A stretch of 64,000 nucleotides of DNA, from positions 2,445 through 66,444 of the forward strand of contig JAAYKE010000049.1 of assembly GCA_012522575.1 (NCBI GenBank), given 5' to 3'. The notes beneath the pieces were generated by a model. That model did no database searches. It was not told the DNA's origin and worked only from the letters and a program-made list of their open reading frames with translations. This DNA is from Armatimonadota bacterium. GTDB taxonomy: Bacteria > Armatimonadota > UBA5829. This document shows, piece by piece, positions 35,925 through 50,102 of this stretch. The stretch's first letter is position 1; each line of letters starts with the position of its first letter. Both the position numbers and the translations under genes were made by a program.

Positions 35925-38678
35925 ATGGACTATAGCAAAACCGTAAACCTGCCCAGGACGGACTTCCCGATGAAGGCAAACCTGCCGAACAGGGAGCCGG
36001 AATTCCATAAATACTGGGAAGAGCACGAGATTTATAACAAGATATCCCAACGCGACGACGCCAAAGGGACGTTTGTATTCCACGATGGCCCGCCCTATTC
36101 TAACGGCGATATTCACATGGGACATGCGCTCAATAAGTCCCTTAAGGATTTCATTGCGCGTTATAAGGCGATGACCGGCTATCGAGTGCCGTATATCCCC
36201 GGCTGGGATAATCACGGGCTGCCCATCGAACAGAAAGTGGCCGAGGAGTTCCGCAAGAAGAAGCAGAATCCGAGCAAGCTGGAACTGCGTAAAGCGTGCC
36301 GCATCTATGCCGAAAAATGGGTCGGAATCCAGCGTGAGCAGCTCAAAAGGCTGGGGCTTCTCAGCGATTGGGATCACCCATATCTCACCATGAGCCGCGA
36401 ATATGAGGCCACAATCATCAAAGTGTTTGGCGAGATGATGGAGAAGGGCTATATCTACCGCGGGCTTCGGCCAATTTACTGGTGCACCAACGACGAAACC
36501 GCGCTTGCCGAAGCGGAGATCGAATATGCCGACCATACCTCGCATTCGATATTCGTTCGCTTCCCGCTAGTGTGTGACCCAAATGGCATATTCGAGCGCA
36601 AAGAAAACGCTTATACGATAATCTGGACGACGACTCCTTGGACCATCCCGGCCAACCTGGCGGTTGCGGTTCACCCGGACTATGAATATGCCGTTGTGGA
36701 TGTCGCAGGGGATCGTTATCTTATAGCAGCCGAGCTTGTCAGTCGGACGATGGAAGCCGCCGAGGTGGCCGAATATTGCGTCGTCAAGACCGTCAAGGGC
36801 AGCGAACTTGAAGGGCTGGTGTTTAAGCACCCTATTTATGATCGTGAATCCGTGCTGACCCACGCCAACTATGTCACGCTGGAAGATGGAACCGGCATTG
36901 TTCATACCGCGCCGGGACATGGCCGCGAAGACTTTGAGACCGGCAAAAAGTATGGATTGGAAGCGCTGAACCCGGTTGATGAGCGGGGCTACTTCACCGA
37001 GGCCGCCGGACAGTTCGAAGGGCTTCACATTACCAGGCAGGGCAATCAGGCGGTTATCGACGCGATGCGAGAAAACGGCTCTCTGATGGCCGAAAGCAGC
37101 ATAACCCACAGCTACCCGCACTGCTGGAGGTGTCATAAGCCGGTAATATTCCGAGCGACTGAGCAGTGGTTCGTGAGCATCGACCACGACGATTTGCGAA
37201 AGCGCATTCTTAATGAGATCGAATCATCGGTGAGGTGTTTCCCGAAGGAGGGTCGCAATCGACTGTATGCGATGATCGAAAGTTCTCCGGACTGGTGCTT
37301 GTCCAGACAGCGGTCGTGGGGAGTGGCGATCCCGGTGTTGTTCTGTGACGCCTGCCGCGAACCGGTGTTGAGCAAGGATGTCATTGATCTTGTCTATGCG
37401 GATGCGCTGGAAAACGGGTCGGACTCGTGGTTCGAGAAAGATGCCTCGGAGTTTGTGCCGGCAGGGTTCAAATGCGCAGTCTGCGGATGCGAAACATTCG
37501 TCAAAGAAGAGGATGTCCTGGATGTGTGGTTCGATTCCGGGTCGAGCTGCAGAGCCGTGACTGAGCGCCTATATGGTGACTTTGTAGCGGATGTATATCT
37601 GGAAGGCTCAGACCAGCACAGGGGCTGGTTCAACAAGTCGATCATAGTCGGGACCGCAACGAAGGGCGCGTCTCCGTTCAAGGATCTGGTCACACACGGC
37701 TATGTGCTGGACGCCGAAGGCAAGAAGATGAGCAAGTCCGGCGGCAATACGATTGCTCCAAAGGAAGTAACCAAGCATTTCGGCGCGGATATTCTCAGAT
37801 TGTATATCTCATCGCTGAACTATTTTGAGGATGTGCGGTTTGGACAGGAGATGTTCACCCGTGCGGTGGACGCATACAGGCGCATCCGCAACACGTTCAG
37901 GTTCATTCTGGGCAATTTGTCTGACTTTGACCCGGATAACGACGCCGTTGATTATGCGGATATGCCTGAGATCGATAAATTCGCTCTGCATCGGCTTGCC
38001 GAGTTCACCGCCGAAGTGACAAAGGCTTATGAAGTCTATGAGTTTCATAAGGTCTACCATGCGGTGCACAATTACTGCGCGGTGGATTTGAGCGGGTTCT
38101 ATCTGGATGTGCTCAAGGACAGGCTCTATGCATCCGCGGCGGACTCCGATGAGCGTCGCTGTGCTCAGAGCGCTTTGTATCATATATTATCCGTTCTGAC
38201 GCGGGTTGTGGCTCCCGTGCTGGTGCATACATCCGAAGAGGCCTGGCTGGCTATGCCGGGTGAATCCAAAGCGGAGTCGGTGCATCTGGCTCCGTTCGCT
38301 GAGGCGGACTCACGGTGGATCGATTCCGAGCTTGCCGGGCGATGGGGACGCATACTCGAAGTGCGCGACCGTGTGCTGGCGGCTTTGGAAGAAGCAAGGC
38401 AGTCCGGGGCCATAGGCAAGCCGCTGGAGTCCAGGATTATAGTCTCCGCAGAGGATGAACTGCTCGCGTTTTTGAAGGGATATGAGGGCATTCTTCCATC
38501 GGTCTTTATAGTATCACAGGTAGAGCTAAGGCAAGCCGATGAGTTGGCTGTCGAAGTGCAGGCTCCTGCGGGCGCAAAGTGCGCGAGGTGCTGGCTGGTG
38601 CTCGAATCAGTCGGCACAAACGAGGAACACCCGGAACTGTGCAGCCGGTGCGCAGAAGCAATAGCACACTCTCACTGA
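35925..38678 (+). CDS. ileS: Isoleucine--tRNA ligase (bacterial type 1 with a C-terminal zinc finger)
   Basis: 'PPYSNGDIHMGHALNK' (HIGH), 'KMSKSGGN' (KMSKS), C-terminal 'CARCW....CSRC'. Confidence 0.95.
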   Translation: MDYSKTVNLPRTDFPMKANLPNREPEFHKYWEEHEIYNKISQRDDAKGTFVFHDGPPYSNGDIHMGHALNKSLKDFIARYKAMTGYRVPYIPGWDNHGLPIEQKVAEEFRKKKQNPSKLELRKACRIYAEKWVGIQREQLKRLGLLSDWDHPYLTMSREYEATIIKVFGEMMEKGYIYRGLRPIYWCTNDETALAEAEIEYADHTSHSIFVRFPLVCDPNGIFERKENAYTIIWTTTPWTIPANLAVAVHPDYEYAVVDVAGDRYLIAAELVSRTMEAAEVAEYCVVKTVKGSELEGLVFKHPIYDRESVLTHANYVTLEDGTGIVHTAPGHGREDFETGKKYGLEALNPVDERGYFTEAAGQFEGLHITRQGNQAVIDAMRENGSLMAESSITHSYPHCWRCHKPVIFRATEQWFVSIDHDDLRKRILNEIESSVRCFPKEGRNRLYAMIESSPDWCLSRQRSWGVAIPVLFCDACREPVLSKDVIDLVYADALENGSDSWFEKDASEFVPAGFKCAVCGCETFVKEEDVLDVWFDSGSSCRAVTERLYGDFVADVYLEGSDQHRGWFNKSIIVGTATKGASPFKDLVTHGYVLDAEGKKMSKSGGNTIAPKEVTKHFGADILRLYISSLNYFEDVRFGQEMFTRAVDAYRRIRNTFRFILGNLSDFDPDNDAVDYADMPEIDKFALHRLAEFTAEVTKAYEVYEFHKVYHAVHNYCAVDLSGFYLDVLKDRLYASAADSDERRCAQSALYHILSVLTRVVAPVLVHTSEEAWLAMPGESKAESVHLAPFAEADSRWIDSELAGRWGRILEVRDRVLAALEEARQSGAIGKPLESRIIVSAEDELLAFLKGYEGILPSVFIVSQVELRQADELAVEVQAPAGAKCARCWLVLESVGTNEEHPELCSRCAEAIAHSH

Positions 38679-38761
38679 GTGCAATCCGGACATATTCACG
38701 CGCTAAATATAACCGCAAGCCGGGATAAATTGGTCAATGAAATGATTGGAGCCTGAACAGC

Positions 38762-39277
38762 TTGGATCGAAAAAATACGATATTGTTCTATTCGACGGCA
38801 GCGGATGTGGCGGTTATAGATCAGTTGACCAAGTATCTGGCGCGGCAGAACCTCGCGTCCGGCAAGCCTGTGGAGGTGATCGCGGGTCTGCTTGACCTCC
38901 CCCTCAACTTCAACACGGGGGCTGCGTTCGGTCTGCTGCCGGATTGGGCGCCGCTGCTCATAATCATGGCCCTTGTGGCGATATTCATAATCGTAAAACT
39001 GCGCGGCGTTGGCGGCGGTTCTTTGCCTGTTTCGATTGGCCTTGGCCTGCTGCTGGGCGGTGCGATTGGCAACCTCATCGACCGCATCGCATTCCCCGCT
39101 CGCGGCGTGACCGATTTTATCGATATCCACATATTTGTTAAAGGTCAGACGCACGCCTGGCCTACTTTCAATATCGCGGATGTCGGGATAGTGGTCGGCG
39201 CGATTCTGGTTTTGTTTCACGTATATATCCTCGAAAGGATGAGAATGGATGATGGAGACACAGAGGCCGCAGATTGA
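38762..39277 (+). CDS. lspA: Lipoprotein signal peptidase (signal peptidase II)
   Basis: 'NFNTGAAFGLL', 'GNLIDR', 'FNIADVGIVVG' conserved blocks; conserved position downstream of ileS. Confidence 0.85.
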   Translation: MDRKNTILFYSTAADVAVIDQLTKYLARQNLASGKPVEVIAGLLDLPLNFNTGAAFGLLPDWAPLLIIMALVAIFIIVKLRGVGGGSLPVSIGLGLLLGGAIGNLIDRIAFPARGVTDFIDIHIFVKGQTHAWPTFNIADVGIVVGAILVLFHVYILERMRMDDGDTEAAD

Positions 39278-39752
39278 GATAGAGCCGACACCGATTGATC
39301 GAGTGGTGGATACGCTGGCGATGATAGGGCTGTTGTATATGGTGGCGATAACCGTGATCTATTATCCGCAGCTTCCGGCGACCATTCCCACGCATTTCGA
39401 TCTTGCAGGCAAAGTCGACGGCTGGGGATCAAAGTTGACCCTGTCGTTTTTGCCTGTGATAAGCGCGGTCTTTTATTTCGCTTTATCTACGATCACCCGT
39501 TTTCCGCACATATATAACTATCCCGTGCCGATAACCGCGGAGAACGTCGAGAAGCAGTATCGAATCGGAATATCGATTATGCGATGGCTGAAGATGGAGT
39601 TCGTGTGCATTTTCGCATTTCTGACTCAGCAGATAATCGCTGCGGCTCAGGTGAAACATCTTTCGATGCAGCCGTGGGTTCCGATGTTGTTTGTGGCGGC
39701 GATACTGATTACATCGGCTGTGCATATAGTGTTGGCTTATCGCGCGAAGTAG
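39249..39752 (+). CDS. DUF1648 domain membrane protein
   Basis: 'IPTHFDLAGKVDGWGSK' is the DUF1648 signature; four predicted TM helices. Confidence 0.5.
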   Translation: MMETQRPQIEIEPTPIDRVVDTLAMIGLLYMVAITVIYYPQLPATIPTHFDLAGKVDGWGSKLTLSFLPVISAVFYFALSTITRFPHIYNYPVPITAENVEKQYRIGISIMRWLKMEFVCIFAFLTQQIIAAAQVKHLSMQPWVPMLFVAAILITSAVHIVLAYRAK

Positions 39753-39761
39753 TATTGTTTC

Positions 39762-40523
39762 ATGCATAGTACCCTGTTTAAGATATTTGGATTTCCGGTG
39801 CACTCCTATGGCCTGATGATGGTCGTTGGGTTTGCGCTTGGGCTGTGGCGCGCGAGCAGAATATCGAAGAAGCGATATGGAATTGAGCCGGATCGGGTCT
39901 ATGATATGGCCCTGACGCTGCTGATCAGCGGCATAGTGGGATCGCGAATCGTATTTGTGCTCATTAACCCGGACACGGAGAGCTGGAAGGATATGCTGTC
40001 GGTGTGGCAGGGCGGACTAAGTTTCCACGGCGGGCTGATCAGCGCGATGGTTGCAGGAGCTATTTATGCGCGTATTGCGAAGCTGAATTATTGGGTTTGC
40101 GCTGATCTGTTCTCCCCTTCGCTGACGATTGGCTATGCCTGCACTCGAATCGGATGTTTTTTGAACGGCTGCTGCTATGGCGCGCCCACCAATCTGCCCT
40201 GGGGAATGAGATTCCTCGATGAAGGCTTCCTGACTCCGCCCTCTCACCCCACCCAACTCTATGCTGTCGGCGCAAATATTCTGATCCTGTGGGCGTTGAT
40301 TAGGTTGGAGAAGCTGCGCCGAAAGCCCGGTTTCGTATTTGTCGGATATGTCGGGCTTTACTCCATATACAGATTTCTGATCGAGTTTTTGCGCAGCGGA
40401 TATACCGCCAAACTGCTCGCGTTCGGGCTGACTGAGGCGCAGTGGGTAAGCCTGGCGGCCATATTAGCCTCGGCTGTTTTGATGCTCACGGTGTATCGCA
40501 ATCCCCTCAAATCTTCACAATAG
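39762..40523 (+). CDS. lgt: Prolipoprotein diacylglyceryl transferase
   Basis: 'GFPVHSYGLMMVVGFALG', 'GGLSFHGGLI', 'R.GCFLNGCCYG' Lgt signature blocks. Confidence 0.85.
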   Translation: MHSTLFKIFGFPVHSYGLMMVVGFALGLWRASRISKKRYGIEPDRVYDMALTLLISGIVGSRIVFVLINPDTESWKDMLSVWQGGLSFHGGLISAMVAGAIYARIAKLNYWVCADLFSPSLTIGYACTRIGCFLNGCCYGAPTNLPWGMRFLDEGFLTPPSHPTQLYAVGANILILWALIRLEKLRRKPGFVFVGYVGLYSIYRFLIEFLRSGYTAKLLAFGLTEAQWVSLAAILASAVLMLTVYRNPLKSSQ

Positions 40524-40723: not shown

Positions 40724-41227
40724 ATGAATGTCAGACAACGCAGACTCAACTCGGATTTCCAGGCGCTCATCGAGCTTTCCCGCGACAATCCGCTTATTGA
40801 TTTTGATATATTAAGCAACAACAAGGACAGATATGTAGTGATTTATCGATGCAGAGGTCTGCATTGGCTGCCGGGTCGTCCGCGTCCATCCGTTGCTAAT
40901 CTGCATCGTATGGAAATTTATCTTCACCTGGACTACCCGCGCCTGCCTCCGCAACTGCAGTGGCTGACCGATATTTTCCATCCCAACATCCTGCCTCCTT
41001 CGATGAACGGCGGGGTATGCATAGGCAAATGGACCCCGGCGGAATCTCTGGACAGGCTGGTGGTGCGTCTCGGGGAGATGGTGCAGTATAAAAACTATAA
41101 CACAAAGGATCCCATGAACCTGCAAGCGGCCGCTTGGGCGGAAGAGAACTCCTCGTCGCTGCCCGTAGACAACAGGCCGCTGACAAATCATTCTAACCCT
41201 TTGGACATAGGCATAGGAGCGCAATAA
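40724..41227 (+). CDS. Ubiquitin-conjugating enzyme (E2/UBC)-like protein, copy 1
   Basis: 'DIFHPNILPPSMNGGVCIGKWTPAESL' matches the UBC active site (HPN, then the catalytic Cys, then the downstream Trp/Pro); the N-terminal 'RRLNSDFQAL' matches UBC helix 1. Confidence 0.7.
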   Translation: MNVRQRRLNSDFQALIELSRDNPLIDFDILSNNKDRYVVIYRCRGLHWLPGRPRPSVANLHRMEIYLHLDYPRLPPQLQWLTDIFHPNILPPSMNGGVCIGKWTPAESLDRLVVRLGEMVQYKNYNTKDPMNLQAAAWAEENSSSLPVDNRPLTNHSNPLDIGIGAQ

Positions 41228-42192: not shown

Positions 42193-42462
42193 ATGGGAAA
42201 AGTGGATGTCACGATTATTGACGCTACGGGAAACAAGGAGCAGCAGGCCTCGCTGCCGGACGATGCGCCGGTGAGGAGAATTATCGCCAGGCTGACGGAG
42301 ATGATGCAACTGCCGGCAACCGATCCGGGCGGACAGATGTTGAGCTACAAGTTTCAGCATAAGGCGTCCGGCACGCAGCTTACCGATGATCAGACCCTTG
42401 CCGATGCAAACGTAAAAGATGGGGACGTGCTGCGGATGCTGCCGGAGATTACTGCAGGATGA
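42193..42462 (+). CDS. Ubiquitin-like beta-grasp protein (Ubl) with a C-terminal Ala-Gly
   Basis: 89 aa; ends '...LRMLPEITAG*'; the stop overlaps the E1 start (ATGA); RBS 'GAGAGGAG' upstream. Confidence 0.6.
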   Translation: MGKVDVTIIDATGNKEQQASLPDDAPVRRIIARLTEMMQLPATDPGGQMLSYKFQHKASGTQLTDDQTLADANVKDGDVLRMLPEITAG

Positions 42463-43730
42463 TCGACGATACAGATGATCTCGGCATTGAACTGATCGGC
42501 GACGACGCCGTTGCGCCGGATGCCCAACAGCCGAAACAGGCGGACGAACAAAAGTTGGTGTCAACCGAGGAGGAAGAGGATCGCTACAGCCGTTTCCGAC
42601 TGATTCCGTGGTGGGATCAGGAGTTGCTTAAACGGACGCGCGTGCTGGTAGTTGGAGCGGGTGCGCTCGGCAATGAGATTCTCAAAAATCTTGCCCTGCT
42701 GGGAGTCGGCAAGATATTTCTGATCGATTTGGATCGGATAGAGAACTCCAACTTGTCCAGGTCGGTGCTTTACAGGCTGTCGGATGAGGGATCCGGCAAA
42801 GCGGAAGTAGCTGCGCGGTCGGCGATGGAGATCAACCCTGACATTACCGTGCATCCGTTTATGGGCAATATCGTGCACGATGTGGGCCTGGGTGTGTTCA
42901 GATCAATGGATGTGGTGATCTGCGGACTGGATAATCGAGAGGCGAGGCTGTGGGTCAACCAGTGCTGCTGGCGGGTGAACAGGCCGTGGATCGACGGAGC
43001 TATAGAGGTATTGCACGGCATAGTGCGAGTGTTCGTCCCGCCTGATGGCGCGTGTTATGAATGCACAATGAACGACACCGACTATGAGATGCTGCGGCGG
43101 CGAAAGTCCTGCGCTCTGCTGACCAGAGAACAGATGCTGGAAGGCAAAGTGCCGACCACGCCAACCATATCATCGGTAATCGCGGGAATACAGTGTCAGG
43201 AGGCCGTAAAACTGGTTCACGATCGCCCTGAGCTACCGGTGCTTGAGGGAAAGGGATACTTCTTCAACGGATTGACCCATGACTCATTTGTGGTGAATTA
43301 TACCCGCAAGCAGGATTGTTTGAGCCATGAGACCTTTGAAAACATCAAGGAGATGGACTGGCGGGCGCAGGACCTGACCTTGAGGCAGGCTCTCGAACAT
43401 ATTCGAGCGGATCTCGGAGACGAAGCGGCTCTGGAGCTTAACCGCGAAATTGTATATGAGATGACCTGTGAGCAATGCGATGTCTCGGTTCCGACTTCGA
43501 TGCTGCTGGGGAAGATGACCGAAGCCGATGCCGCTTGCCCGAAATGCCGCGAAGTGATGGCTTTGGAGATGTGTCACAGCGTCTCCGGAGACGAGGCGTT
43601 TGTTGACAAGACCTTCGCCGAAATAGGGCTGCCCGCATTTGACATAGTTGCGGGCAGGTGCGGGATGGAAGAAAGGTACTATGAGTTGAGCGGTGACAGG
43701 GCAAAGATGCTCGGCGACATCGCGGATTGA
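42459..43730 (+). CDS. E1-like ubiquitin-activating enzyme (ThiF/MoeB/HesA family) with a C-terminal CxxC zinc module
   Basis: 'RVLVVGAGALGNEILKNLALLGVGKIFLIDLDRIENSNLSRS' adenylation Rossmann fold; C-terminal 'CYEC', 'CEQC', 'CPKC' pairs; N-terminal acidic 'DDTDDLGIELIGDD'. Confidence 0.8.
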   Translation: MIDDTDDLGIELIGDDAVAPDAQQPKQADEQKLVSTEEEEDRYSRFRLIPWWDQELLKRTRVLVVGAGALGNEILKNLALLGVGKIFLIDLDRIENSNLSRSVLYRLSDEGSGKAEVAARSAMEINPDITVHPFMGNIVHDVGLGVFRSMDVVICGLDNREARLWVNQCCWRVNRPWIDGAIEVLHGIVRVFVPPDGACYECTMNDTDYEMLRRRKSCALLTREQMLEGKVPTTPTISSVIAGIQCQEAVKLVHDRPELPVLEGKGYFFNGLTHDSFVVNYTRKQDCLSHETFENIKEMDWRAQDLTLRQALEHIRADLGDEAALELNREIVYEMTCEQCDVSVPTSMLLGKMTEADAACPKCREVMALEMCHSVSGDEAFVDKTFAEIGLPAFDIVAGRCGMEERYYELSGDRAKMLGDIAD

Positions 43731-44707
43731 GCAAAAAAAGAACGGGTGGGAAGGCTATGACTGCAGAGGATAGACACAATGATGCAGATATTGAGCTTAT
43801 TGTAACCGAAAATCGGCCCAGCGGCGCGATGGATTGTCCGGACATCCGGATCGACCCTGAAGTAGATAAGCAGATACAGACCTTCGCAAAAACAGACACC
43901 GGCAAAGAGTTGGGAGGAGTGCTGCTTGGGGAGCTTATCGCTGATTCCGTAATCCCGCAGGTGAGAATCAAGGCCGCTATTGAGGCCAAACATACGGAAG
44001 CCGTTCAGACAAGCGTCAAATTCACCCACGATACCTGGGACGACATCAACCGGGTCAAGGATGAAAAATATCCGGATATGCGGATAGTCGGGTGGTTCCA
44101 CACTCATCCCGGCTTTGGCATATTCCTGTCGCGGTGGGATATGTTTATCCAGGAAAACTTCTTTAATCTGCCGTGGCAGGTGGCCTATGTGGTCGATCCT
44201 GTCGGTAAAACGAGCGGGTTTTTCCGGTGGGAAAACGGCAAAGTTGCTCAGGTCGGCAAGAAAAAAGAAATTGCGCCTCCTATTGAGGTCACGCTTCCGA
44301 AAGTGGAAAAAGTCGGCAGGTCATTTAACTGGGGAACGGTATTCTCTGTTGTCTTGAACGTTGCGCTGATTGCGGCCGTGGTATATCTTGGCCTGTTCAA
44401 GCCTCCGGAGGTTCGGGTTGAGGAGAAAATCGTAACCGAAGAAGCGCCGGTTAACGTTGAGCGGCAATCGACAACTGAGATGACCGAGCAAGCGCAGACG
44501 TGGACGGAATATGTTGTGCAGAGGGGGGATTCTTTCTGGTCGATAGCCAAGAATTGTTATGGAGAGGGTGAATTATATACCGCTATCCAACTCTTCAACA
44601 ATATGCCCGATAAAAAGGTACTGCACACAGGGGAGCGCTTGCGGCTGCCGTCCAAAGAGATCGCCGTTACGATGCTTGACAAGAGGATCAGACCAGGGAT
44701 TGATTAA
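43727..44707 (+). CDS. JAB/MPN (JAMM) metalloprotease fused to a TM segment and a C-terminal LysM domain
   Basis: 'E..AV' glutamate plus 'WFHTHPGFGIFLSRWD' (HxHx7Sx2D); TM helix 'VFSVVLNVALIAAVVYLGLF'; LysM 'YVVQRGDSFWSIAKNCYG....AIQLFNNMPDKKVLHTGERLRLP'. Confidence 0.75.
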   Translation: MSKKRTGGKAMTAEDRHNDADIELIVTENRPSGAMDCPDIRIDPEVDKQIQTFAKTDTGKELGGVLLGELIADSVIPQVRIKAAIEAKHTEAVQTSVKFTHDTWDDINRVKDEKYPDMRIVGWFHTHPGFGIFLSRWDMFIQENFFNLPWQVAYVVDPVGKTSGFFRWENGKVAQVGKKKEIAPPIEVTLPKVEKVGRSFNWGTVFSVVLNVALIAAVVYLGLFKPPEVRVEEKIVTEEAPVNVERQSTTEMTEQAQTWTEYVVQRGDSFWSIAKNCYGEGELYTAIQLFNNMPDKKVLHTGERLRLPSKEIAVTMLDKRIRPGID

Positions 44708-45301
44708 ATGCGTTCGTCTGTCGGCAAAACGTGTCCATATTGCCAGTATCCCATCAAGCCGGATGAGCCGGTAATCGAGTGCAGTCATTGCGGCATGCCG
44801 CATCATAGGGCTTGCTGGGAATATAACCGCGGGTGTACGACTTATGGCTGCAGCGGAGTGCAGCGGCATGGCAGATTGCCCGTTGCAGGCAATCAGCAGG
44901 GGTCTGATCATATCGACCTTACAGACATAATGCACGAGCCGGAACAGCCGACTCCATACTATCCGCAACAACCGGGATACCAGCCCGCGGAATCGGAAGC
45001 TCCGCTTTTAGCGACATCGAACTCATTAGCGGGCAGCGGAGGAGTGATTGGAGCGATAATCGGAGGATTTATCGGTCTGAGCGGCGGGTGCGCAGGCTGC
45101 ATTCCCGGCGCAATTTTCGGTTTTATCATAGGCGCCTTGATCGGCGGGTTTATGCTCTATGGCATTATAATAACTGTGACCAGCGGGATTGGGTATATGT
45201 TCGGATCAGTCGGCGGGCAGGACGCGGCTATCGGCGGAGCGGCAATCGGGCTGATAGTCGGAGTCATAATAATCGTAATCGGTTGCTGCAAGCAGGCATG
45301 A
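44708..45301 (+). CDS. PHD/RING-like binuclear zinc-finger protein (paralog 1) with a glycine-zipper membrane C-terminus; candidate E3
   Basis: N-terminal 'CPYCQYPIKPDEPVIECSHCGMPHHRACWEYNRGCTTYGC' (C-x2-C-x12-C-x2-C-x3-HH-x2-C-x6-C-x4-C); the C-terminal half is GxxxG-rich and hydrophobic. Confidence 0.55.
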   Translation: MRSSVGKTCPYCQYPIKPDEPVIECSHCGMPHHRACWEYNRGCTTYGCSGVQRHGRLPVAGNQQGSDHIDLTDIMHEPEQPTPYYPQQPGYQPAESEAPLLATSNSLAGSGGVIGAIIGGFIGLSGGCAGCIPGAIFGFIIGALIGGFMLYGIIITVTSGIGYMFGSVGGQDAAIGGAAIGLIVGVIIIVIGCCKQA

Positions 45302-45339
45302 CGATTCATACAAGATCAAGATAGCAGGAGGTTTGATCT

Positions 45340-45939
45340 ATGGCTAATACAGTGGCCGGACCCGCAATAGCCGGCAAGACATGTCCGTTTTGTCAGACTC
45401 CGATAAAACCAAATGAACCTGTGCACATTTGTGACCAGTGCAATATCCCGCATCACCAGGATTGCTGGCGGGAAAATGGCGGCTGCACGACTTTCGGGTG
45501 CAGGGGAGCCAATGCAGCACGCCCAATCATCCCGCAACGAGCTTACGACGATCACTCTCAACCAGTCCAACAGCAGCCCTATTTTCAACCAAATCAGCAA
45601 CCCGGATACGGTAATCAATATCAACAACATTATCAATATGCGCCCGATGTGCCGCCTGAAATAATGGGCAAGCTCAACTGGGGAGCATTTCTTTTGCCTT
45701 TCTTTTGGGCGATAGCCCACAATGTGTGGATCGGACTCTTAATACTGGTTCCCTACGTTGGATGGGTTATGCATTTTGTTCTGCTGTTCAAGGGCAACGA
45801 ATGGGCGTGGAGAAATCGCAGATTCCAGAGCGTTCAACATTTCAACGAAGTGCAAAATGCCTGGGTGATAGCGGGACTCATATTGTTCTTCGGGTCGATA
45901 GTGTTCGTTTTTATATTAATGTCACTGGCGTACGCTTAG
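45340..45939 (+). CDS. PHD/RING-like zinc-finger membrane protein (paralog 2); candidate E3
   Basis: 'CPFCQTPIKPNEPVHICDQCNIPHHQDCWRENGGCTTFGC' has the same ligand spacing; a Gln/Pro/Tyr-rich linker; two or three C-terminal TM helices. Confidence 0.55.
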   Translation: MANTVAGPAIAGKTCPFCQTPIKPNEPVHICDQCNIPHHQDCWRENGGCTTFGCRGANAARPIIPQRAYDDHSQPVQQQPYFQPNQQPGYGNQYQQHYQYAPDVPPEIMGKLNWGAFLLPFFWAIAHNVWIGLLILVPYVGWVMHFVLLFKGNEWAWRNRRFQSVQHFNEVQNAWVIAGLILFFGSIVFVFILMSLAYA

Positions 45940-45962
45940 TTTAGTCAAGTTAGCTGAAATCC

Positions 45963-46847
45963 ATGACCGGCAAGCTCTGTCCATATTGTCAAAATCGTAT
46001 TACGTCGGGGAGCGCGGTTACTGCCTGCCCTGCCTGCAACACTCCGCATCATAGCGAGTGCTGGAACTACAATGGCGGGTGCACGACTTTTGGGTGCCGA
46101 TATATGCCCGGAGCAAGTGCGCATTCTTCAGCACAAGCATACGATGCATACGATGACCTGGATATAGAGCTTTATCCTCCGGGTGGCGGGTATCCGCCTT
46201 CGCGAAGCGGTCATGTGGAGCAGCAACACTACCGGCAGAGCCAGCCCAGGTCAAAGAATTCGTGGTTGTGGGCGATTATTTCGATAACTGCGTTTCTGGG
46301 CATGGTCGCCATTATGATAAGCACGACATTCAATAACCCGACGAATGCATCTTACATGAAACGCGCCATAAAATGCGTCAATCAAGAGCAGTATGAAACT
46401 GCAAAAACCTACTGTAATCTGGCTATTGAACAGGACCCCGAGTGTATGGAGGCATATTATCTGAAGGGCACATTGCTGCTGGAGCTTTGCAATTGGCGGC
46501 ACAACAACATTGAGGTGTGGATGAACCAGGCCAGACACGGTAACACTGAGCGGTTCGATGCGGCAGATGAGTGCTTTAGGCAATGTATCAGGTTCGCGCC
46601 AACTGATACGACTGAATATAACAAATATCTGAAGCTGGATAACTCTGAGATTGTGAGCCGGGCGTATGTCCACCTGGCGATGACGGCAACTCTGCGGATG
46701 CTGGCTAATTATGATGCCAATCGTATGAACGACGCGCTACTATGGGCCAGAATCGCGCGGCAATATCTTAACAAGGTGACATATTACCACCTTGGAACGG
46801 AGTATTACGAACTGGCAGATGCCCTGCAAAAGTTTGTGCCCGGTTAA
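45963..46847 (+). CDS. PHD/RING-like zinc-finger membrane protein (paralog 3) with a C-terminal TPR-like helical domain; candidate E3
   Basis: 'CPYCQNRITSGSAVTACPACNTPHHSECWNYNGGCTTFGC'; one TM helix 'WLWAIISITAFLGMVAIMI'; TPR-like 'YETAKTYCNLAIEQDPECMEAYYLKGTLLLE'. Confidence 0.55.
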   Translation: MTGKLCPYCQNRITSGSAVTACPACNTPHHSECWNYNGGCTTFGCRYMPGASAHSSAQAYDAYDDLDIELYPPGGGYPPSRSGHVEQQHYRQSQPRSKNSWLWAIISITAFLGMVAIMISTTFNNPTNASYMKRAIKCVNQEQYETAKTYCNLAIEQDPECMEAYYLKGTLLLELCNWRHNNIEVWMNQARHGNTERFDAADECFRQCIRFAPTDTTEYNKYLKLDNSEIVSRAYVHLAMTATLRMLANYDANRMNDALLWARIARQYLNKVTYYHLGTEYYELADALQKFVPG

Positions 46848-46897: not shown

Positions 46898-47467
46898 ATG
46901 AACCCTAGAATGATGCGTCTGAATGCCGATTACGAGAAGATCAGGACGGAATTTCTCGGCCATAGATATGTTACGGTCGAACCGATGGGTTCGCTGCCGC
47001 CTGAGAGATATAGAATCACATATCGAGTGCCGGGGCTGCGATGGGATAGCTTCGGCAACAGGCCGATTGTCGTCAACGAACATGTCGCGGAGATATATCT
47101 TCACGCTGATTACCCGCGTCAAACGCCAAAAGCTACCCTCAAAACCCCGATTTGGCACCCGAACTTTGGCACATATATCTGCATTGGAGATCACTGGGCG
47201 GCAGGAGAGACGCTGGTGGATATAATCGTGCAGATTGGGGATATGATTCAATATAAGTCCTACAATCCCAAGAGTCCGCTCAATGCAAATGCCGCGATAT
47301 GGTCGATGCAAAACCAGCATCTCTTCCCGGTAGGGACGATCGATATCCTGCAGCCGGAACCGGAGGTGGAGTTTGGCGGCGCAAGCGCAGATGTTGAGGA
47401 GGATGACCTTGGAATTGTGCTGGGGCCAAGCTCCGATAACGATGATCTGGAGATAGAATTCAAATGA
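46898..47467 (+). CDS. E2/UBC-like protein, copy 2, with an acidic C-terminal tail
   Basis: 'PIWHPNFGTYICIGDHWAAGETL' HPN...C motif; N-terminal 'MRLNADYEKI'; ends '...DNDDLEIEFK'; RBS 'GGAGACG' upstream. Confidence 0.7.
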   Translation: MNPRMMRLNADYEKIRTEFLGHRYVTVEPMGSLPPERYRITYRVPGLRWDSFGNRPIVVNEHVAEIYLHADYPRQTPKATLKTPIWHPNFGTYICIGDHWAAGETLVDIIVQIGDMIQYKSYNPKSPLNANAAIWSMQNQHLFPVGTIDILQPEPEVEFGGASADVEEDDLGIVLGPSSDNDDLEIEFK

Positions 47468-48231
47468 CACGGCCAGATGACGCCGGCAATCAAAAAATTG
47501 AAGTGACACTGGACGAGCCGGTCGATACGCCTGAGCAGGGATCAAATAGACCGCAAGGGGAATCGGAAGGCGCGATTCCACCGGGAGCCGTTGAGGTCTA
47601 TATAGACAAGGCTGTGCTTGAATCGACCTGGGAGCATGTGCTCACAAACAGGCGCACCGAGCTTGGCGGAGTGCTGATTGGGCGGCGCAGGGAAGCGGAC
47701 GGAACCTTTACGCACATCACAAACTGGCTTGACGCGAGGCACACGACCACCACCTCCGGCAGCCTGACATTCACACACGATGCCTGGGCCGATATAGCGC
47801 AACGAATGAGCGATATGGATCCGGATGACAAAATTGTCGGATGGTATCATTCTCATCCCGGCCACGGCGTTTTTATGAGCGGCCAGGATAGATTTATCCA
47901 TAATAACTTCTTTGCCAATGACTGGCAGTGTGCGCTGGTGATTGACCCAATTAAAAACGACAGGGGATTGTTTCAATTAGTCAACGGACAGATTGTGCGC
48001 ACCGGGTATTGGTGTGTGCCCGACAAGCCGGTGTATGTGACTCAACAAGATAGTAAGCCCGTTGCCGTGGAAACGCCGCCGCAACAGGATGGGTTGCACG
48101 AAGCGGCAAGCGATTTTCTGGAAGCGGGAGATCATATCGCATCGGGAATAGAGAAATTCGTAAAATATTCTGCACAGCGCATACGCAATTCTAAAGGCCC
48201 GCTTGGCCGGAACATCGACAAAAAGGCGTAA
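47464..48231 (+). CDS. JAB/MPN (JAMM) metalloprotease, copy 2 (soluble)
   Basis: 'ELGGVLIG' glutamate plus 'WYHSHPGHGVFMSGQD' (HxHx7Sx2D); the start overlaps the E2 copy-2 stop (ATGA). Confidence 0.75.
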   Translation: MTRPDDAGNQKIEVTLDEPVDTPEQGSNRPQGESEGAIPPGAVEVYIDKAVLESTWEHVLTNRRTELGGVLIGRRREADGTFTHITNWLDARHTTTTSGSLTFTHDAWADIAQRMSDMDPDDKIVGWYHSHPGHGVFMSGQDRFIHNNFFANDWQCALVIDPIKNDRGLFQLVNGQIVRTGYWCVPDKPVYVTQQDSKPVAVETPPQQDGLHEAASDFLEAGDHIASGIEKFVKYSAQRIRNSKGPLGRNIDKKA

Positions 48232-48258: not shown

Positions 48259-49344
48259 ATGAGCAACGACAAAATTGAAATCAGCTTTGACGATGAGGAC
48301 GAGCAGCCGAAGCCCCGGGAAAAGAAACTGATCATTACGAGCGATGACCTGCTCAACGTGCCCGACCCGCAGCCGCTTGCCGCACAGAAGCCTGTGGGGT
48401 TTGATGCGCCTGCGGATTCATATATGCAGTATCAGAAGAAACCATCGGCCTCAGCGGTGTCCGGTCACAGTATTATGCAGGGAGCAATCGCCGGGCTTAT
48501 TGGCGGTTTTTTGGCGTGGGCTGTCACTGAGCCTTTATTTGGGGACAATGTGGCCAGCAGCAATTTTGTCAGTATCATCGTTAAAATGGGTTTTTTCGGC
48601 GGACTGATCGGAGGGCTGATTGGCGGTTGCCTGGGAGCTGCGGATGGAGTTGTTTCAGGAGTTGCTGAAAAGGCGTTCAAGGCCGGCGCAATTGGCTTGG
48701 GGATCGGAATGGGCGGCGGTTTTCTGGGCGGAGTTTTTGGGCAGATTGTCTATGGCGCTCTGCTGCAATCGGGAGAACCCGGACTTGGCACATATATGGT
48801 GGCGCGAACAATCGGCTGGTCGGTGGTGGGTGTGTTCGTTGGGTTGGGACAGGGAGTAGGACGAGGCTCCGGCAAGCGCGTGACTAACGGTTTGCTGGGA
48901 GGTCTGGCTGGCGGTTTTATTGCAGGAATTCTGTTTGACCCAATTTCGGTTTTATTTGCTACCGGATTGTTGAGCCGACTCTTTGGAATCACGATACTCG
49001 GCGCTGCTGCCGGGCTGGCGGTCGGATTGGTGGAGGAAATGCGAAAGCAAGCCTGGTTATCTATAGTCAAAGGGCCGCTTGCGGGCAAGCAGTTTATTTT
49101 ATATGAACAAAGAACGAGAATTGGCAGTTCTCCCAAGTGTGAAATTAGTCTGGTAAAAGACCCGCAGGTGATGCCGGAACACATTGCCATAGATAATCAC
49201 GGCAGCAGTTTCAGCCTCAGCGCTCTTATGGGACAGGCGCTGGTGGACGGACGACCGGTACATCAAACCCGGCTGCAGGCGGGGAATATGATCACACTCG
49301 GTTCGACGTCGCTGCTCTTTGAGGAGAAGGCGATCGGTCAGTAG
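48259..49344 (+). CDS. Membrane protein with a glycine-zipper TM region and a C-terminal FHA-like domain
   Basis: N-terminal acidic 'KIEISFDDEDEQ'; GxxxG-rich hydrophobic core 'GAIAGLIGGFLAWAV...GGLIGGLIGGCLGAADG...GIGMGGGFLGGVFG'; C-terminal 'GKQFILYEQRTRIGSSPKCEISLVKDPQVMPEHIAID.....L.....ALVDGRPV....L..GNMITLGSTSLLFE' matches an FHA fold pattern. Confidence 0.55.
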   Translation: MSNDKIEISFDDEDEQPKPREKKLIITSDDLLNVPDPQPLAAQKPVGFDAPADSYMQYQKKPSASAVSGHSIMQGAIAGLIGGFLAWAVTEPLFGDNVASSNFVSIIVKMGFFGGLIGGLIGGCLGAADGVVSGVAEKAFKAGAIGLGIGMGGGFLGGVFGQIVYGALLQSGEPGLGTYMVARTIGWSVVGVFVGLGQGVGRGSGKRVTNGLLGGLAGGFIAGILFDPISVLFATGLLSRLFGITILGAAAGLAVGLVEEMRKQAWLSIVKGPLAGKQFILYEQRTRIGSSPKCEISLVKDPQVMPEHIAIDNHGSSFSLSALMGQALVDGRPVHQTRLQAGNMITLGSTSLLFEEKAIGQ

Positions 49345-49380
49345 ATATCTGACTAAGGAGCGATAAGGCCATTAACGCAG

Positions 49381-49500
49381 TCATCGGGAAAATCTGCCCT
49401 TTTTGCCAGACTCCTATAAAATCGGAGGACGATTGGGATTCGGATGACGACGACGATGGTTGGGATTCCGAGGAATATGATGATGACTGGGATTACTGAT
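49381..49500 (+). pseudogene. Fragment of a fourth zinc-finger paralog fused to an acidic Trp-rich tail (no ATG start)
   Basis: The in-frame translation '...GKICPFCQTPIKSEDDWDSDDDDDGWDSEEYDDDWDY*' carries only the first CxxC of the paralog motif; the upstream in-frame stop leaves no canonical start. Confidence 0.4.
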
Positions 49501-49526: not shown

Positions 49527-50102
49527 ATGATCGCGCCTAGGCGCATTTTGGGCCTTATCTGCGGGGTGTGCGCGGTGATATTGGTCGTGGGATGCAGCGG
49601 TGGTAATTCATCCGCGCCTGCCGAGGGAAATCGGCCCCAGTCGCTGTTTAGCGCAGATTTGGCCGAACGACTGGACAGACACGATGCGCAAACCGGGGAT
49701 GTGCAGGCGAGTTTGATCTGGAATAACTACAACGACCTCGACTTGCACATTATTGATCCGAATGATGAACGGATATATTTCGCGCACAAACGGGCCAGGT
49801 CAGGAGGGGAACTCGATGTGGATATGAACGCGCGCGGTCGGGAATCTAATGAGCCGGTCGAAAACATCTATTTCCCGCAAGGCGGAGCGCCCGCCGGACG
49901 CTACAGGGTCTACGTTCATTACTATGCCAAGCACGACTCCGATAACCTCACCCCGTTCAGATGCGAAGTGCTGGTCAAAGATGAGGTGCATAAATTCTCC
50001 GGGGAGATGTCCAAAGGCGATCCGATCCGACTGATTTATGAATTCACACTGGAAGGCAAGCAGGAAAAACCAATTCCACTGCTGTTTTCACCGAGAAGAT
50101 AG
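49527..50102 (+). CDS. Lipoprotein of unknown function
   Basis: 'MIAPRRILGLICGVCAVILVVGCSGG' lipobox; conserved-looking 'LIWNNYNDLDLHIIDPNDERIYF....GGELDVDMN' beta-rich domain; RBS 'GGGAGGG' upstream. Confidence 0.5.
   Translation: MIAPRRILGLICGVCAVILVVGCSGGNSSAPAEGNRPQSLFSADLAERLDRHDAQTGDVQASLIWNNYNDLDLHIIDPNDERIYFAHKRARSGGELDVDMNARGRESNEPVENIYFPQGGAPAGRYRVYVHYYAKHDSDNLTPFRCEVLVKDEVHKFSGEMSKGDPIRLIYEFTLEGKQEKPIPLLFSPRR

Follow-up and report, generated by a model that had tools for sequence, protein, structure and literature searches.

Bacterial RING-type E3s were reportedly predicted by Burroughs, Iyer and Aravind (Mol Biosyst, 2011), who are said to have described the prokaryotic RING fingers of operons for a ubiquitin-like protein (Ubl), E1, E2 and JAB peptidase, and to have defined the family Prok-RING_1 on that occasion. 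In a 2024 review, prokaryotic RINGs are presented as C4HC3 fingers with a longer insert between the final two ligands (PMC11354881). In the compact operon of Caldiarchaeum subterraneum, the RING protein (srfp) is required for E1/E2-dependent ubiquitylation in vitro, and mutations of its loop-1 Ile, helix Trp or linchpin Arg impair the reaction (Hennell James et al. 2017, PMC5654768). Here we describe three tandem genes for RING-type fingers in a 64,000-nucleotide stretch of the genome of an Armatimonadota bacterium (contig JAAYKE010000049.1), which is referred to below as the window. These genes encode old paralogs of the Prok-RING_1 family (PF14446), which, with moderate confidence, we interpret as membrane-tethered, non-catalytic E3 adaptors in a Ubl conjugation operon.

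The three open reading frames (ORFs) lie in tandem on the plus strand, exactly at the coordinates reported in a first-pass annotation made from the sequence alone:

44708..45301, + strand: RING paralog 1, 197 aa; PF14446 finger, then a glycine-zipper region with multiple transmembrane (TM) segments
45340..45939, + strand: RING paralog 2, 199 aa; PF14446 finger, Gln/Pro/Tyr-rich linker, 2-3 TM segments
45963..46847, + strand: RING paralog 3, 294 aa; PF14446 finger, one TM helix, TPR-like domain

Translations and alignments of all three ORFs give the N-terminal spacing C-x2-C-x12-C-x2-C-x4-H-x2-C-x6-C-x4-C, that is, eight ligands in the order C4HC3. The central part of this string had been read as C-x3-H-H. 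The second of the two histidines is indeed invariant in the family. The first varies (H in 92%, Y in 5% and L in 1% of the family columns), and C-x4-H is therefore the better description. The block PHH..CW....GCTT(F/Y)GC is genuine in all three paralogs, and the distinct membrane or C-terminal module that the first-pass annotation had described for each of them is recovered by Pfam and by hydropathy, on which the TM segments and C-terminal modules of the window proteins were assigned. Paralog 1 consists of 27% Gly and contains 14 GxxxG motifs, with a sub-threshold Pfam match to Gly-zipper_Omp (E 0.026). Paralog 3 matches TPR_1 with 28.7 bits (cut-off 27.8); an AlphaFold2 model and an ortholog alignment were made for this protein, and Foldseek relates its TPR region to the TPR domains of STI1, CHIP and p67phox (E 1e-3 to 2e-2). 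This domain is probably periplasmic.

Judged by their sequence profiles, the three fingers are members of the already described Prok-RING_1 family and not a new domain. They score 40.5, 38.1 and 42.3 bits (paralogs 1, 2 and 3; E 2.7e-10, 1.5e-09 and 7.1e-11, respectively) against PF14446, the curated gathering cut-off of which is 29.1 bits. The domain had been called novel-looking, which does not hold for a family said to date from 2011. This family is large: searched with a profile of the three N-termini, 1.84 billion cluster representatives yield 6,729 matches at E<=1e-3 and 1,258 at E<=1e-10, and some of the matching proteins hold 2-4 copies of the finger. The size was obtained by an exhaustive hidden Markov model (HMM) search; a word-indexed search with the 57-aa profile yielded just 12 short fragments. 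Likewise, the close last Cys pair, which had been taken for a compact variant, is the standard spacing of the family: among the best matches of the family profile search, 167 of 202 domains show the exact ligand spacing, and the wider final pair is mentioned in the 2024 review (PMC11354881). The family signature, derived from column statistics of 239 domains, is GK.CP[YF]CQ.PIK...C..C..PHH..CW.EN.GCTT[FY]GC. In a set of family sequences, Trp37 and the eight ligands are invariant, the ligands having themselves been required when those sequences were selected.

To place the genes among their relatives, one genome per species was scanned, and the ORFs of the resulting 77 loci were annotated with HMMs built from the window proteins. 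All 99 related RING proteins, which come from 73 loci, match PF14446, and of the 105 RING proteins encoded in the loci, 98 contain a TM-like segment. The modules partnering the finger in the 99 proteins are diverse and include zinc ribbons, DUF2628, NTF2-like domains, TPR, CD225 and RDD.

The finger is predicted to adopt a cross-brace, RING-like binuclear fold, in which zinc binding itself is presumed. The AlphaFold2 model has a pLDDT of 84.7 overall and above 90 in the core, and it resembles binuclear fingers, RING as well as PHD, in line with the cross-brace RING/PHD-type finger proposed in the first-pass annotation. PHD fingers rank first in Foldseek, aligned over about 30-39 columns, and RING-H2 fingers are matched over the full length (EL5, TM-score 0.59/0.61). 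In a search of the sequence profile against PDB sequences, EL5 is the top match (E 2.9e-05), followed by the C1 domain of ARHGEF2 and the PHD fingers of KMT2C/D; no solved structure of any Prok-RING_1 member was found in this search. The choice between RING and PHD is thus partly settled, leaning to RING. PHD (PF00628) reaches 13-16 bits, below its cut-off of 24, and the canonical long spacer between ligands 6 and 7 and the C-x2-C last pair are absent from the fingers. The C1 families (PF00130 and PF03107) also stay below cut-off (C1_2, 21.8 bits), and the N-terminal His ligand of C1 domains (H-x12-C...) is absent from the sequence.

These matches bear on two other interpretations of the domain. 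The finger might be a PHD- or C1-like reader of peptides or lipids, loosely coupled to Ubl conjugation, for example a membrane-proximal sensor independent of E1 and E2. C1_1 matches in 7 of the 99 family members, the ARHGEF2 and KMT2C/D matches, and the many family members without ubiquitin-system genes nearby are consistent with such a function, as are the Pfam matches to C1_2, PHD and PHF5; the latter, however, are all sub-threshold, and the missing C1 histidine and the strong recurrent linkage of the genes to Ubl, E1, E2 and JAB in at least four phyla make a reader of this kind quite improbable. It is scarcely credible that the cysteines belong to a single-zinc ribbon, to a DNA-binding zinc ribbon or to a chance Cys-rich stretch. 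Zinc-ribbon families of Pfam do match weakly (E 0.16-0.3), but this is contradicted by the eight invariant ligands, the PF14446 E-values of about 1e-10, the membrane anchoring of the proteins and the confident cross-brace-type model. The same model and its binuclear neighbours speak strongly against a single-zinc rubredoxin-like ribbon, the outcome named in the first-pass annotation as refuting its proposal.

Pfam and the ORF map place the paralogs, as had been noted, next to genes for E1, E2 and JAB, and also in one operon with a Ubl gene, with E2b directly downstream of the RING genes. Together these genes form one co-directional cluster, the remaining members of which are:

40724..41227, + strand: E2a, UBC-fold E2 with HPN...C (residues 86-99); UQ_con 41.7 bits
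41229..42167, + strand: HtrA/trypsin-like serine protease; signal or TM segment, periplasmic protease domain, TM helix, cytoplasmic tail ending ...DDLEIELK
42193..42462, + strand: Ubl, 89-aa YukD/ubiquitin-like beta-grasp protein ending ...EITAG; YukD 54.5 bits; conserved across phyla
42459..43730, + strand: E1, ThiF-fold activating enzyme; closest solved relatives UBA7, UBA1, UBA3 and SAE2
43727..44707, + strand: JABa, JAMM peptidase (HTHPx7SxxD), TM helix, LysM domain
46898..47467, + strand: E2b, UBC-fold E2 (HPNFGTYIC); acidic C-terminal tail with two copies of an acidic motif
47464..48231, + strand: JABb, soluble JAMM peptidase
48259..49344, + strand: FHA protein, glycine-zipper multi-TM region and C-terminal FHA domain
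49371..49499, + strand: decayed fourth RING gene; hmmsearch match E 2.9e-07, supported by translation and DNA alignment
49527..50102, + strand: putative lipoprotein, final gene of the cluster; ortholog at the same position in two related loci (L001, L002)

The operon encodes a complete ubiquitin-like conjugation set. Both E2s retain HPN...C and both JABs HxHx7SxxD as intact catalytic motifs, the Ubl ends in Gly, and the nearest solved relatives of E1 and E2b are eukaryotic, namely, UBA and UBC enzymes, respectively. The Ubl is 70-90% identical to those of the seven loci compared, which include three metagenome-assembled genomes (MAGs) of Armatimonadota, MAGs of Syntrophomonadaceae and Acidobacteriota, and Ca. 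Zipacnadia; ...PE[IV]TAG is present in all. Some Ubl homologs carry 1-6 additional residues past the Gly and would need processing by JAB. A scan for promoters and terminators gave no difference from shuffled sequences.

The related loci are distributed over Armatimonadota, Bacillota, Ignavibacteria/Bacteroidota, Verrucomicrobiota, Planctomycetota, Acidobacteriota and others, the closest being from Armatimonadota (81% over the finger). E1 and E2 occur together in 24 of them with gene order essentially kept, and the order E2a-HtrA-Ubl-E1-JABa-RINGxN-E2b-JABb-FHA-lipoprotein recurs in Armatimonadota, Bacillota, Acidobacteriota and Verrucomicrobiota. Directly upstream of the operon lie ileS-lspA-(DUF1648)-lgt (window 35925-40523), an arrangement also found in L001 and L002. 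Because this synteny is common to them, the operon is chromosomal and vertically inherited in the nearest relatives; in the window and its closest relatives it is a case of conserved chromosomal synteny and not a mobile island. A scan of viral contigs found no relatives.

Tandem diversification, which the first-pass annotation had suggested, is not supported as a peculiarity of this locus. Multi-RING operons are usual, 18 of the 24 loci with E1 and E2 having 2-5 RING genes, and each paralog type has orthologs of its own. Over the finger, the window paralogs are 76-85% identical to their L001 orthologs, versus 52-63% to each other; the types are old. Orthologs (for paralog 1, L001:10001 and L017:7123) match the window paralogs both in the C-terminal module and in finger-specific residues. 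The decayed gene downstream of the FHA gene retains the first zinc knuckle ('AVIGKICPFCQTPIK' / 'GKICPFCQTPIK'), joined to an acidic tail, and is without an ATG, GTG or TTG start. Its counterpart in L001 and L002 is an intact fifth RING gene after the FHA gene, encoding a 184-aa protein with RING, TM segment and acidic tail (DNA aligned to L001:14590-15175).

An E3 function of the fingers would entail contact with an E2. Three aromatic positions are well conserved in the family columns: Y/F between ligands 1 and 2 (89%), W after ligand 6 (98%) and F/Y between ligands 7 and 8 (88%). They sit at other positions than the E2-groove residues of RING-H2 fingers. Several observations weigh against an E3 role. 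The conserved Trp directly follows ligand 6, compared with four residues after it in RING-H2, and the position behind the last ligand, where a basic linchpin would be expected, is not conserved and holds no conserved Arg. No Foldseek match of this very small domain attains E<=1e-3, and the literature searched contains no experiment on any bacterial Prok-RING_1 protein. In the gene neighbourhoods, 13 Ubl-E1-RING loci are without a detectable E2 (3 of the 13 being flanked by 4 kb or more on either side), and a lone RING gene without E1 or E2 is found in 14 loci with long flanks. The unconserved linchpin, the displaced Trp, the E2-less cassettes and the lone RING genes hold our confidence in E3 adaptors at a moderate level. 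In view of these four points, the fingers may serve in docking or as acceptors, either in place of E3 activity or in addition to it.

According to this alternative, the fingers would be membrane docking or acceptor modules and not ligases, binding Ubl, E1 or the acidic motif described below, or becoming modified on the conserved Lys of 'GK..C' or 'PIK', and would in this way anchor the machinery or the Ubl at the membrane. Two Lys beside the first zinc knuckle are indeed conserved (K 77% and 62% in the family columns), the linchpin is not, and the PHD fingers that head the Foldseek ranking bind peptides by strand addition. A terminal acidic motif on nearly all operon proteins also calls for a receptor, and Ignavibacteria and Bacteroidota have cassettes of Ubl, E1 and RING that lack E2. 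On the other hand, the RING genes adjoin E2b in the full operons, and the E2-less cassettes could draw on an E2 encoded elsewhere in the genome. We regard the docking role as a real if minor possibility.

The minimal Ubl-E1-RING cassettes are found at L009:8330-10879 and in L010, L011, L015, L016, L021, L026, L028, L030 and L034. Their RING protein combines the finger with a zinc ribbon, a TM segment and an NTF2-like domain. Near these cassettes of Ignavibacteria and Bacteroidota, neither E2 nor JAB is detectable, and in L009 the neighbours are, on inspection by eye, unrelated genes. The finger may act there with E1 alone, or an E2 may be encoded elsewhere.

In Bacillota and Verrucomicrobiota, a homolog of E2b is fused into a longer protein ending in an FHA-like domain (590-630 aa in L007, L018, L023, L024, L033, L041 and L042; about 305 aa in L047, L050 and L063). 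In these fusions the E2 would be physically joined to the membrane FHA component, which is a separate gene in the window.

The E3-adaptor interpretation suggests the following scheme. Each paralog would expose a small cytoplasmic N-terminal C4HC3 two-zinc finger, held at the inner membrane by a module of its own: a bundle of glycine-zipper TM segments in paralog 1, 2-3 TM segments in paralog 2, and one TM helix with a TPR-like domain in paralog 3. Ubl would be activated by E1 and handed to an E2, probably E2b since this is the E2 paralog present in most related operons. The RING fingers, as non-catalytic E3 adaptors, would then bring E2~Ubl to separate places on the membrane or to separate clients, the site or client being set by the C-terminal module of each RING protein. 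The JAB peptidases would both process the Ubl and take it off. Several location- or substrate-specific ligases with one common conjugation core are the most economical reading of the locus, and this matches the published prediction for the family; E2 binding, ligase activity, substrates and biological role are what we infer only.

Nearly all operon proteins contain a short motif that is acidic and strand-like (consensus DD[LIF][DE]I[DEQ][LF], 'DDLxIEL'). HtrA and E2b have it at the C-terminus, whereas in E1, JABa, JABb and the FHA protein it is N-terminal. A matrix was trained on the HtrA and E2b tails alone and applied with a threshold at the 97th background percentile, so that about 3% of the background passes by construction. 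It matches 6 of 24 E1, 13 of 38 JABa, 3 of 5 JABb, 4 of 16 FHA and 9 of 55 RING proteins; none of 23 Ubl proteins exceeds this threshold. Every match in E1, JABb and the FHA protein lies near the N-terminus, as do 10 of 13 in JABa, and 8 of the 9 RING matches are in the first quarter of the protein. Ubl would be the obvious candidate for its receptor, as SUMO is for SUMO-interacting motifs. In a more far-reaching and improbable version, the operon would constitute a transmembrane Ubl-signalling machine joined by this one motif, which would dock the enzymes, from a free terminus or a linker, on Ubl or on the RING fingers; through the RINGs, periplasmic inputs (TPR, LysM, HtrA) would feed into conjugation in the cytoplasm, and the E2-less RING of Ignavibacteria would work directly with E1~Ubl. 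If this were true, the E2-less cassettes of Ignavibacteria would represent a two-enzyme stage older than E2. These cassettes and the acidic motif are the parts likeliest to yield something new.

Bacterial RING E3s bear on the pre-eukaryotic origin of the three-enzyme ubiquitin cascade. The locus alone leaves the overall picture unchanged, since family members number in the thousands and equivalent operons in the dozens. It is, nevertheless, a complete and apparently intact example, with Ubl, E1, two E2s, two JABs and three RING types with conserved orthologs, and as such could be used for reconstitution, to put a bacterial RING E3 to a biochemical test for the first time.

The known systems compared include the eukaryotic membrane RING E3s HRD1/synoviolin (RING-H2) and the MARCH-type RING-CH proteins (C4HC3). 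No sequence homology to them is detectable past the ligands, and the spacing between ligands 6 and 7 and between 7 and 8 differs (here x6 and x4). The finger of HRD1 follows the TM domains, whereas here it is N-terminal, and none of the present data imply a role in retro-translocation. Bacterial Bil, Bub and CBASS-Cap2 defence operons resemble the locus in combining E1, E2, Ubl and JAB or another peptidase. The RING component is, however, missing from those systems, and the operon described here resides beside ileS-lspA-lgt with synteny kept in relatives. Models of PADLOC gave no match for the RING, E2, Ubl and FHA proteins, and for E1, JAB and the protease generic domain-level matches only. 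The Caldiarchaeum subterraneum cascade is likewise encoded by a compact prokaryotic operon, which holds genes for Ubl, E1, E2, a RING protein and a JAMM peptidase. Its RING, by contrast, is of the RING-H2 type (C3H2C3), small and soluble, and the fingers here are C4HC3, membrane-anchored, present in several copies per operon and without a conserved linchpin, next to a YukD-like Ubl ending in Ala-Gly. The closest counterpart is Prok-RING_1 itself. The HMM score, the C4HC3 order with the wider last Cys pair, the N-terminal finger with TM helices, and the neighbourhood of YukD-like Ubl, E1, E2 and JAB are all shared with this family, and we find no essential difference from it.

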